Virus record (IMG/VR): IMGVR_UViG_2778261540_000003
Direction: 5' to 3' (one strand)
Length of the DNA stretch: 64,000 nt
DNA from: a virus
Lineage: Duplodnaviria; Heunggongvirae; Uroviricota; Caudoviricetes
Positions within the stretch are counted from its first letter, which is position 1. Every line of letters starts with the position of its first letter. This document shows, in pieces, positions 1-2,707 of the stretch. Made by a program: the position numbers and the translations under genes. Under the pieces are notes generated by a model. The model was not told the origin of the DNA. It saw nothing but the letters and a program-made list of their open reading frames with translations, and ran no database searches.

Positions 1-2707
1 AGTTGCCATAGGCAATGCGCAGACCATTCGCCGATTTGGAAATAATCTCGCCAGCAGCAGTTAATCCGCCAGTTAACGCTCCTCCAGATAGTGGTAAAGC
101 TCCGACATCAGCCGCAGTAGGTTTGTTTTTAGTGTTATACGCTCTGCGCCATCCTGGTGAATAACTTGTGCCATTAGACACATAGATAAATTCAGCATTA
201 GTGAGTGCGCCAGATACACTTGTCGTCGTTGCCGTTGTTATACGAATGGTAAAATAACTCGTGCTACTGCTATTATTAAATACCTCTATAACTGCGCCAG
301 CCAGTGGAATAATGCCGCATCCTGTTTCGCTGTCTGGTATGGATGCACTAATTGCATACGCCCAGGCACAACGCGCTATCCATACCTTTGCATTAAAAGC
401 ACCATTATCTCGTAGCAGAGTCACTAATTGCTCTGTTGTTATTGATGCTCCATTATCACCTGTTTCAAGCCAACCAGTAGGAGATGCCGGGCAACCAATA
501 TTTGCCGGTGACAGAGAAATATTAGCCGTTCCGTCAAATGAAACCCCATTAATGGTGCGTGCTGTTTGCAGTTTTGTGGCTGTAGCTGCATTGCCGGTAG
601 TGCTCTGATTGCCTGTTTTATTCACGCCCGGCAGGTCGATGTTTGCGGTGCCATTAAATGAAACACCACCAATAGTTCTTGCCGTTTGTAATTTCGTTGC
701 AGACGCCGCGTTTCCGGTTGTGTTCTGGTTGCCCGTGGTATTTACACCAGGGATGGAATCCTTCGATGTGTAGACCTGCGCCCACTCTGACCAACTGGCT
801 GTATCAGTATCTCGTCGCGAACGTACATGTACAGGTGCATGAGCGCCACTTGTACCGCTCCAACCTATGAACAACTCACCTTCACCAACTGCCGTTGCGC
901 CCTTAAGATGAAGCACATTCCCGTAAGCAGAAGGATAGCCGTTGTTGTACGCCTCATACATTTGCAATCCAGTAGCAGCACCTTGTGTTGTACCGGTGAG
1001 CGCAGTAACACGCCCTCTGGACGTAATTGTTGGTATCGAAATGTCCACAGAACCATCAAATTTAACACCGTTGATGTTTCTTGCCGTCGCAAGTTTCGTC
1101 GCGGTAGCAGCATTCCCCGTGGTGTTCTGGTTACCTGTTGTATTTACACCTGGAAGATTGATATTGGCCGAGCCATCAAATGCCACACCGCCAATCGAGC
1201 GTGCTGTTTTCAATTTCGTTGCAGTATCGGCATTCCCTGCCAGCGCCCCGGTGATCCCGCCGTTGAAAGTCTGGCGTGAACTCCATGTGTTAGCCGTGCT
1301 CAACAGGGGGATCTTTTCACCGCTGGTACCGAGTTCTCTTAAACCAAGGTATTGGATAACAGCAAGAACGCTTGTTTTGGCCAGAATATCGCGACCGACT
1401 GACGTTAAGTCAGTCTGAGAAACAGTGTCTGTACCGGTAAAGTACGGCAATTTATTTGCGCCTGTCGCAAGACCAGCAAGCGCGGTTAAAGTTGCATCAA
1501 GTGGCTGTTTCCCTGCCAGCGCATTTGTCATTGTTGTCGCAAAGTTCGGGTCATTGCCCAGTGCTGCTGCAAGCTCATTCAGGGTATCAAGAGCTTCAGG
1601 TGATGATCCGACCAATGCAGAGATAGCAGCCCGTACGTAAGCAGTCGTAGCGATCTGCGTATTGTTTGTGCCCTGTGCAGCCGTAGGCGCAGTAGGGACA
1701 CCCGTTAATGCAGGGCTTGCCAAAGGCGCTTTGAGAGCCAAGGCATTGTTGATAGTTGTGCTGTAATTCGGGTCGTTATTGATCGCAGCCGCTATTTCTT
1801 TCAGCGTATCCAGTGTGCCAGGCGCACCGTTGATAAGTGCAGTTATAGCTGCCTTAACAAAGGCTGTATTTGCGATCTGCGTGCTGTTTGTACCTTGCGC
1901 TGCCGTCGGCGCGGTTGGCGTTCCTGTCAGACTCGGGCTTTCTATTGGCGCTTTGGTATCAGCCAGATCTTTTATAGACTTAACGGCTTTAGGGGTAGCC
2001 GCCATTGTTTCGCTGTCGCTGTTAGTTGCGCTACTGAGCTGAACTAATCCCTTTTGCGTTGTGCTTGCATCCTGCGCCGTATACTTGCTTTTCGCCAGAT
2101 CGTAGGCTTTTTTAACTGCCAGCGAACTTGCAGCAACATCACTTCTGCTACTGGTTACAGAGTCTGAAATATCAATGCCGATCGTGCGGTTAATACGCTC
2201 GGATGTATCAATCATCTCCTGGGTAATGGCTGATACGCCAGCAGGGATATTCACCGTACAAACAAGCAGCTCCCCATCTCCTAACTGATATGAATCGGTA
2301 TAGGTTCGGGCAACAAATTCAGCCGCATGAATATGTGACGCGGTATTAACCTGATAGGTATCCTCTCCAAGGAGGTATCTTCCCTTCAGCACAATTGCAT
2401 ATTTCTTGCCTGCACTAAGTGCAAGAGAAATATCCTTACGGTGCTGAATAGTTACCTGGTAGAATTCACCAATATCCACCGACGCCGCGCCTGCGGTTTT
2501 ATCACCATCCACTGAGGTGATTAACAGGTTCATCCCACCGCCAGGCTTAGGTAAGAAACCGGCATAAAATCCCGGGTCAACAATCCCCCTGAATTTTCGG
2601 TTTAGCGCGGCTGACAGATATGGTTCGTGGTATTGCACATCAGCCACCAGAGCCAACGACTCGGGTGATGGGTAAGTAACTGATGTAACAACTGTAACGT
2701 CATTCAT
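1..2707 (-). CDS. S: Tail fiber protein S (partial; C-terminal variable part runs off the window start)
   Basis: Hand-translated minus-strand ORF from ATG at 2707 (MNDVTVVTSVTYPSPESL...) with no stop before position 1; LPYFTGTDT motif and repeated NTTGNAATATKL-like fiber repeats; plus-strand ORFs in the track here are antisense. Confidence 0.75.
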   Translation of the reverse strand, partial: MNDVTVVTSVTYPSPESLALVADVQYHEPYLSAALNRKFRGIVDPGFYAGFLPKPGGGMNLLITSVDGDKTAGAASVDIGEFYQVTIQHRKDISLALSAGKKYAIVLKGRYLLGEDTYQVNTASHIHAAEFVARTYTDSYQLGDGELLVCTVNIPAGVSAITQEMIDTSERINRTIGIDISDSVTSSRSDVAASSLAVKKAYDLAKSKYTAQDASTTQKGLVQLSSATNSDSETMAATPKAVKSIKDLADTKAPIESPSLTGTPTAPTAAQGTNSTQIANTAFVKAAITALINGAPGTLDTLKEIAAAINNDPNYSTTINNALALKAPLASPALTGVPTAPTAAQGTNNTQIATTAYVRAAISALVGSSPEALDTLNELAAALGNDPNFATTMTNALAGKQPLDATLTALAGLATGANKLPYFTGTDTVSQTDLTSVGRDILAKTSVLAVIQYLGLRELGTSGEKIPLLSTANTWSSRQTFNGGITGALAGNADTATKLKTARSIGGVAFDGSANINLPGVNTTGNQNTTGNAATATKLATARNINGVKFDGSVDISIPTITSRGRVTALTGTTQGAATGLQMYEAYNNGYPSAYGNVLHLKGATAVGEGELFIGWSGTSGAHAPVHVRSRRDTDTASWSEWAQVYTSKDSIPGVNTTGNQNTTGNAASATKLQTARTIGGVSFNGTANIDLPGVNKTGNQSTTGNAATATKLQTARTINGVSFDGTANISLSPANIGCPASPTGWLETGDNGASITTEQLVTLLRDNGAFNAKVWIARCAWAYAISASIPDSETGCGIIPLAGAVIEVFNNSSSTSYFTIRITTATTTSVSGALTNAEFIYVSNGTSYSPGWRRAYNTKNKPTAADVGALPLSGGALTGGLTAAGEIISKSANGLRIAYGN
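1334..1359. other. cix-like crossover site of a Cin-type invertible tail-fiber segment
   Basis: TTCTCTTAAACCAAGGTATTGGATAA: two 12-bp half-sites around a central AA, resembling the Gin/Hin/Cin crossover-site family; lies inside S where it encodes VIQYLGLRE. Confidence 0.6.

Follow-up and report, generated by a model that had tools for sequence, protein, structure and literature searches.

A P1-type Cin/cix invertible tail-fibre segment at the edge of a phage-plasmid sequence, with a second inversion nested inside it

The 64,000-nt stretch of DNA analysed here (the window; IMG/VR record IMGVR_UViG_2778261540_000003, Caudoviricetes) opens inside the tail-fibre gene S. The window very probably belongs to a P1-like phage-plasmid and starts 1,346 nt inside a Cin/cix invertible C segment, with a full fibre switch lying across its left edge. 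The outer segment flips in nature: public records hold it in both orientations, and two sibling plasmids differ by its inversion only. A second inversion is nested in the first and yields four S proteins in the lineage instead of two.

Crossover site and segment boundary

The crossover site is TTCTCTTAAACCAAGGTATTGGATAA at window positions 1334–1359. It occurs once in the 64-kb window even when up to three mismatches are allowed (0.00 expected, 100 shuffles) and is identical at 26 of 26 positions to the annotated cixR of phage P1 (NC_005856). Comparison of all other 26-mers of the window with cixL and cixR gives fewer than 18 matching positions in every case. The P1 record places the site at 36471–36490 and the crossover at 36480/36481, which corresponds to 1346/1347 in the window. 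As in the P1-type C segment, the 26-bp site is composed of two 12-bp half-sites and a central dinucleotide and lies at the boundary of the constant (Sc) and variable (Sv) parts of S. It is read in frame, and the stretch that it covers corresponds to codons 450–458 of S (V-I-Q-Y-L-G-L-R-E). With this identity and this reading frame, the cix-like site that the initial annotation had placed within S is confirmed as genuine and is no chance match.

Because the crossover falls at 1346/1347, positions 1–1346 are inside the invertible C segment. The initial annotation had taken 1–1333 as the variable part of the fibre. These positions are indeed inside the segment, but the inner boundary was drawn 13 nt short, as 1334–1346 (the inner half-site and the first core base) are inside as well. 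Moreover, 1206–1346 are identical in both orientations, and only the sequence at 1205 and below depends on orientation.

Elsewhere in the window, TTATCCGAAACCAAGGCTGTTCGTAA at 49989–50014 matches cix at 17 of 26 positions, with a good left half-site and core (AAACC-AA-GG). About six 17/26 matches are expected per 64 kb by chance, and this one is probably fortuitous.

Complete segment in near-identical records

Among the phage, plasmid and complete E. coli genome collections, no record matches the window over its whole length. By sequence comparison its source is a mosaic P1/P7/SJ46-like phage-plasmid. Near-identical records serve as proxies for the DNA to the left of the window. MH422554.1 ('Punavirus P1', infant faeces) shows 2 mismatches to the window in 12,200 nt, plasmid CP057845.1 shows none in 5,577 nt, and the invertible segments of these two records have no difference over 5,735 nt. 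In the proxies a further 743 nt of S (247 aa) lie past the window edge, which brings the protein to 1,149 aa. Leftwards, the rest of S is followed by U, then by the opposed U' and Sv', an inverted cixL and cin, which is the order of P1. The Sv/U and Sv'/U' cassettes are in opposite orientation and both U proteins belong to Pfam Caudo_TAP, while both versions of S carry Phage_fiber_2 repeats and a Gp34_trimer-like domain.

The cixL site of MH422554.1 and CP057845.1 is identical to P1 cixL, is inverted, and lies about 4.38–4.40 kb to the left of window position 1. The initial annotation had called for a second inverted site within about 4–5 kb on this side together with an alternative variable exon and an invertase gene, and all three are found in these proxies, the exon being Sv' with U'. 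The cixL–cixR distance is 5,735 bp in MH422554.1, CP057845.1 and CP057851.1, and a cix search at up to seven mismatches returns only the two canonical sites, while a looser cut-off of 18/26 adds the inner dyad described below. Cin of the near-identical records is identical to P1 Cin at 186 of 186 residues (Pfam PF00239 and PF02796, resolvase and HTH_7), and the 72-nt recombinational enhancer inside cin is identical to that of P1 at 72 of 72 positions. Thus a serine invertase gene with its enhancer adjoins the segment in these records, outside the window. A tblastn search of the window finds no homologue of cin, Sv', U or U', and S is open at the left edge. Both the invertase gene and the fibre C-terminus are therefore beyond the window, as had been proposed.

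Two E. fergusonii plasmids (L014 and L015) carry CAATCCAATACC as the outer half of cixL, with two changes from P1 cixL and a likeness to the outer half of cixR; their invertase gene is annotated with 573 nt instead of 561 nt, 12 nt more. At the far end, window 39001–64000 is best matched by Salmonella enterica and E. fergusonii P1-like plasmids (99.9% over 96%) and not by the records to which its left end is identical.

Inversion of the outer segment

The flipped junction was searched with a query made of the cin 3' end and the outer cixL half, joined to the reverse complement of window 1346–347. This junction is intact in 17 plasmids, 9 of them at 99.5% identity or above, and the window's own junction is held by 8 records at 99.8% identity or above. 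Three independent viral contigs also show the flipped state. The most direct case is a pair of plasmids, CP057845.1 and CP057851.1, both 95,217 bp long and from isolates of one pooled pig-farm sample. Cutting CP057845.1 exactly at both cix crossovers and inverting the segment gives CP057851.1, and this single inversion is the only difference over 14 kb. Both orientations thus exist, and the sibling plasmids together with the junction counts show natural inversion. The breakpoint is resolvable only to within the 141-nt perfect repeat at the segment ends.

We infer that Cin performs the outer exchange, because the enzyme, the sites and the enhancer are identical to those of P1, where this was shown experimentally. 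Summaries of what has been published on the P1 C segment are given in PMC6906374 and bioRxiv 10.1101/2022.07.24.501295.

Nested inversion and four arrangements

A second inverted repeat is found inside the segment, with its arms at 6374–6573 and 8856–9055 of L001. The arms are complementary at 195 of 200 positions, effectively 191 nt with one mismatch. The window starts at the equivalent of L001 9001, and window 1–55 is the outer end of the right inner arm. The arms sit at the joint between shaft and tip in both cassettes, and the inner module consists of both tips and their chaperones. Since tips and chaperones are carried together, each tip stays linked to its own chaperone when the module turns.

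A query joining the window's shaft to the other tip was used for the inner-flipped junction, which is intact in 9 plasmids at 99.3–99.6% identity. The third 95,217-bp farm sibling, CP057856.1, differs from CP057851.1 by a second exact inversion and is otherwise the same over 14 kb. A pair of E. fergusonii siblings, each of 94,718 bp, is exactly one outer and one inner inversion apart over 7.66 kb. All four shaft/tip combinations are present in public records, and three of them occur among the three isolates of one farm sample. There are thus more than two arrangements, a feature of Min-like multi-inversion as in p15B. Among the closest records, each of the two inner states accounts for about half in either outer orientation; 8 records are identical or nearly so to window 1–2400, and 4 of them have one tip and 4 the other. 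The window ends inside the joint before any informative polymorphism, so which of the two tips completes S is not readable from it. The initial annotation had described the segment as being in one of two possible orientations. The orientation switch is real, but the description is incomplete for this lineage, in which the nested inversion leads to four arrangements. A literature search of incomplete coverage found no description of the nested inversion.

Tail-fibre gene S and its operon

The features of the left end are listed in Table 1. S is a minus-strand open reading frame (ORF) with its ATG at 2707 and runs for 902 codons without a stop to the left window edge. Its constant part shows 98.5% identity to residues 1–453 of P1 S. 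From the crossover, the inverted repeat is perfect for 141 nt inwards but for no more than 4 nt outwards, and the 141 nt have 4 mismatches to P1. Because 1206–1346 is an inverted repeat, the same 47–48 residues are encoded in both orientations and are not variable; S and S' are 100% identical over residues 454–501.

Table 1. Features of the tail-fibre region at the left end of the window
Feature	Position	Strand	Remarks
Shaft-side (outer) end of the 200-nt inner repeat arm (arm positions 55 to 1; S residues about 884–902)	1..55	-	Part of the conserved shaft-tip joint
Lineage-specific shaft part of Sv (S residues 502–884)	56..1205	-	The truly orientation-dependent coding sequence of the window
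Outer inverted repeat inside the segment, 141 nt, S residues 455–501	1206..1346	-	Same residues in either orientation
cixR, 26-bp Cin crossover site	1334..1359	.	TTCTCTTAAACC-AA-GGTATTGGATAA, exchange at 1346/1347; 26/26 to P1, unique in window
Sc, constant N-terminal part of S (residues 1–454)	1347..2707	-	Outside the invertible segment; annotated as Sc in P1
Gene R, first gene of the tail-fibre operon	2719..3153	-	144-aa ORF; named from P1 annotation
Late promoter LPs, predicted to drive R-S-U from outside the segment	3184..3202	-	18/19 identical to annotated P1 LPs, homologous position

Homology to the P1 reference ends at window 1203, and the shaft of the window shows 57–59% identity to the P1 S and S' shafts. 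The S shaft has four repeats of about 40 aa, which start at aa 491, 531, 665 and 705. These repeats (window 505–1237) follow the pattern GVNTTGNQNTTGNAATATKLxTARxIxGVxFDG..., and 516–715 forms a direct repeat with 1038–1237. Tandem Repeats Finder reported nothing on 1–2800, the 40-aa repeats being too diverged or interspersed. A Gp34_trimer-like domain begins in the window and spans 1–208 of it; Pfam finds PF21446 over aa 834–936 of S, and PF03406 is also present. At the very edge, the Sv' protein matches window 2–55 at 100% over 18 aa.

The length of the shaft varies among relatives. Contig L009 is without window 1121–1210, and a large plasmid class at 89.3% identity is 117 nt longer over the same query (2,517 vs 2,400 nt). 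Such variation in length suggests gain and loss of repeat units.

Upstream of S, the R product matches P1 R at 143 of 145 aligned positions (stop codon counted). LPs differs from P1 at one position (ATTGTAAGAGAAGTAACTT vs ATTGTAAGATAAGTAACTT) and, by analogy with P1, would be active as a promoter.

Comparison with known switches

The closest known system is the P1 C segment, reportedly described with Cin and cixL/cixR by Iida et al. in 1982. All the hallmarks of that segment that can be read from sequence are seen here, those outside the window through the near-identical records. Here cixR, cixL, Cin and the cin enhancer are identical to those of P1, and the order cin, cixL, Sv', U', U, Sv, cixR, Sc, R is shared. 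In both, a fixed promoter and a constant 5' part of S are combined with a 3' part and a chaperone that are swapped by inversion. However, the segment is 5,735 bp long here and 4,256 bp in P1, and the repeat inside the cix sites is 141 nt here, whereas P1 has a 558-nt perfect stretch (636 nt at 98%). Both cassettes here are of the P1-S type and none is of the P1-S' type. The inner 191-nt inverted repeat and the nested inversion are absent from P1.

The window cassette was also considered as P1 Sv or Sv' itself, and this was rejected: the two local tips show only 42% and 59% identity to the tip of P1 S, and neither is like that of P1 S'. As the tips are only distantly P1-like, receptor specificity is not transferable from P1. 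In IMGVR_UViG_651053023_000001 (L005 and L008; 103,130 bp), about 816 nt matching window 531–1346 are found at both segment ends, by cin and by Sc. The repeat length inside the cix sites thus varies widely by lineage, from 141 nt here through about 600 nt in P1 to about 816 nt in that contig.

The Cin/cix switch is a member of the Hin/Gin/Cin/Pin serine-invertase systems, and inversion of the P1 type depends on Cin and on the host factor Fis. The G segment of phage Mu (Gin/gix), a close functional counterpart, uses an invertase of the same family and has alternative S/U and S'/U' cassettes, and the P1 annotation records extensive Mu homology in this region. Mu differs in its phage backbone and its sites; its inverted repeat is short (34 bp), and we know of no nested inversion in Mu. 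The Min region of p15B is said to carry a P1-related fibre gene whose 3' part is assembled by multiple inversions into more than two variants (reportedly the work of Sandmeier, Iida and Arber in 1990–1992). Min reportedly has six true crossover sites, all at cassette starts, whereas here there are two canonical sites and the extra inversion lies in a long repeat in mid-cassette, where site-specific catalysis is a candidate only. Conserved linker modules of fibre genes, which act as joints for homologous recombination in mosaic fibre evolution, offer another likeness, since the 200-nt arm joins several unrelated shafts and tips across P1-like contigs. They differ in that here the two copies are inverted within one segment and give a reversible within-genome inversion, not a rare exchange between phages. 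The tail-fibre region is known as a hypervariable hot spot of P1-like phage-plasmids (PMC6906374, PMC9603915).

Recombination at the inner repeats

Two catalysts were considered for the inner flip. We lean towards general homologous recombination between the 191-nt repeats, made by host RecA and possibly phage functions, in which case the inversion would be a by-product of a module boundary and no programmed switch. The inner repeat is near-perfect, with a single mismatch in 191 nt, and the crossovers map to wide intervals, arm positions 1–111 in the RHB13 pair and 40–191 in the E. fergusonii pair. Polymorphisms of the arm (positions 36/39 and about 166–172) are found on either shaft or either tip, depending on the lineage. 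Both arms of a lineage share lineage-specific changes, a signature of gene conversion and concerted evolution of the arms. As would a linker for homologous recombination, the same arm stands between several shafts and no fewer than four or five types of tip. However, sibling plasmids differ in their inner state with about the same frequency as in their outer one, and where the two mapped intervals overlap there is a cix-like dyad that is statistically unusual. In P1, outer inversion is Cin-dependent despite a repeat of 0.6 kb, which would make homologous inversion over 191 nt comparatively rare.

This dyad, TTATCCGAAACG-AT-GGTTCAAGCACA, is the basis of the other candidate, a somewhat less probable one, in which Cin itself would act at a secondary cix-like pair in the inner arms. 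It lies at arm positions 65–90, matches cixR at 18 of 26 positions and is present as an inverted pair in the inner repeat. In shuffled sequence, matches at 18/26 are expected at about 0.6 per 64 kb, or about 0.002 for a single 200-nt arm, and cixR is the only such match in the window. The dyad falls within the overlap (arm 40–111) of the two independently mapped crossover intervals and has the same codon register as cix, and the inner repeat is wholly absent from reference P1. The weight that the overlap lends to the dyad is reduced by the 72-nt width of the overlap, as two uniformly placed homologous events would both fall inside with a probability of about 0.3. The dyad has further weaknesses. 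Its right half-site is a poor one, with 8 of 12 positions matching the inner half of cix. The dyad also encodes a conserved peptide, FIRNDGSST, so that its conservation may reflect the protein, and relative L009 has a substitution inside it.

Hybrid sites between cix and the inner dyad, which would have been diagnostic of Cin, are found in none of the collections searched (viral contigs, metagenome contigs and plasmids). This agrees with homologous recombination and is equally expected if Cin never binds the dyad. The AT core of the dyad differs from the AA/TT core of cixL and cixR, and each pair could recombine only with its own partner. Since the central dinucleotides differ, the absence of hybrids is expected anyway and is uninformative. 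Only the four isomers expected from like-with-like pairing are seen, as the Cin model would have it. Its fullest form is a two-tier programmed switch, in which Cin would flip the 5.7-kb segment through the AA/TT core and, independently, the nested 2.3-kb module of tip and chaperone through the AT core, making four fibres from two orthogonal pairs of sites, in a manner that recalls the multi-site Min system of p15B. We hold this form to be doubtful.

Discussion

In the switch that we propose for the window, transcription would run from the fixed LPs through R and Sc and across cixR into the adjacent variable cassette (Sv and chaperone gene U). Cin, the serine invertase encoded just past the other end of the segment, would exchange strands at the central dinucleotides of the inverted cixL and cixR. 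The 5.7-kb segment would then flip and Sc would be joined in frame to the alternative cassette, Sv'/U'. Later phage would carry a different fibre and presumably adsorb to different hosts. The second inversion, between the 191-nt repeats, would swap modules of tip and chaperone between the two shafts.

Several points weigh against this proposal. The 141-nt perfect repeat lets the outer exchange fall anywhere within it, and judged from the sequence alone it could be homologous recombination. The inversion evidence is drawn from assembled records rather than from reads. The change of host range on switching is presumed by analogy, and both tips are only 42–59% identical to the P1 S tip, with neither S'-like. 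The window source's own left flank is unseen and its layout is taken from near-identical records, while the far end of the window appears mosaic relative to the records that match the left end.

A quite improbable alternative is that the window's genome carries a frozen relic, which has kept cixR and Sv and lost cin or cixL to the left of the window. With the window's own left flank unseen, such a loss would have escaped notice, and in the relatives NZ_AP027855 and NZ_CP122828 parts of the region are replaced or cut by insertion sequences. P1-like plasmids with a truncated cin or a lost C segment are reported as well (PMC6906374). However, the four inspected records among those closest to the left end (MH422554.1, CP057845.1, NZ_CP058059.1 and siblings) all have a complete segment with cin and cixL. 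That the isomers are an assembly artefact was rejected, as many independent assemblies share these arrangements, viral contigs have them too, and repeats of 141–200 nt are short enough for long reads to cross with ease.

The decayed switches of the two relatives differ in form. In L012 (NZ_AP027855.1), IS1 elements and a fimbrial operon lie on the cin side, while in L011 (NZ_CP122828.1) an IS91-family element adjoins a truncated S without Sc.

Returning to the Cin/cix switch, the evidence supports the initial annotation as correct and largely already known, as the sequences are public and the P1 switch is textbook material. What is added is a corrected boundary, a 141-nt repeat that is not variable, and four isomers instead of two. 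For annotators, the ORF cut off at the left edge represents the variable part of a P1-type fibre gene, contigs of the P1-like family can legitimately assemble in alternative arrangements, and the receptor-binding tip is not to be inferred from the window. E. coli from livestock and clinics commonly harbours natural P1-like phage-plasmids, often with resistance genes on them, and these plasmids have larger segments with other cassettes. In the lineage studied here, the nested inversion occurs on the time scale that separates isolates of one farm sample. If the second flip is programmed, it would show a two-state switch growing into a multi-state one, and this would be relevant to the engineering of P1-based delivery vectors with chosen host ranges.

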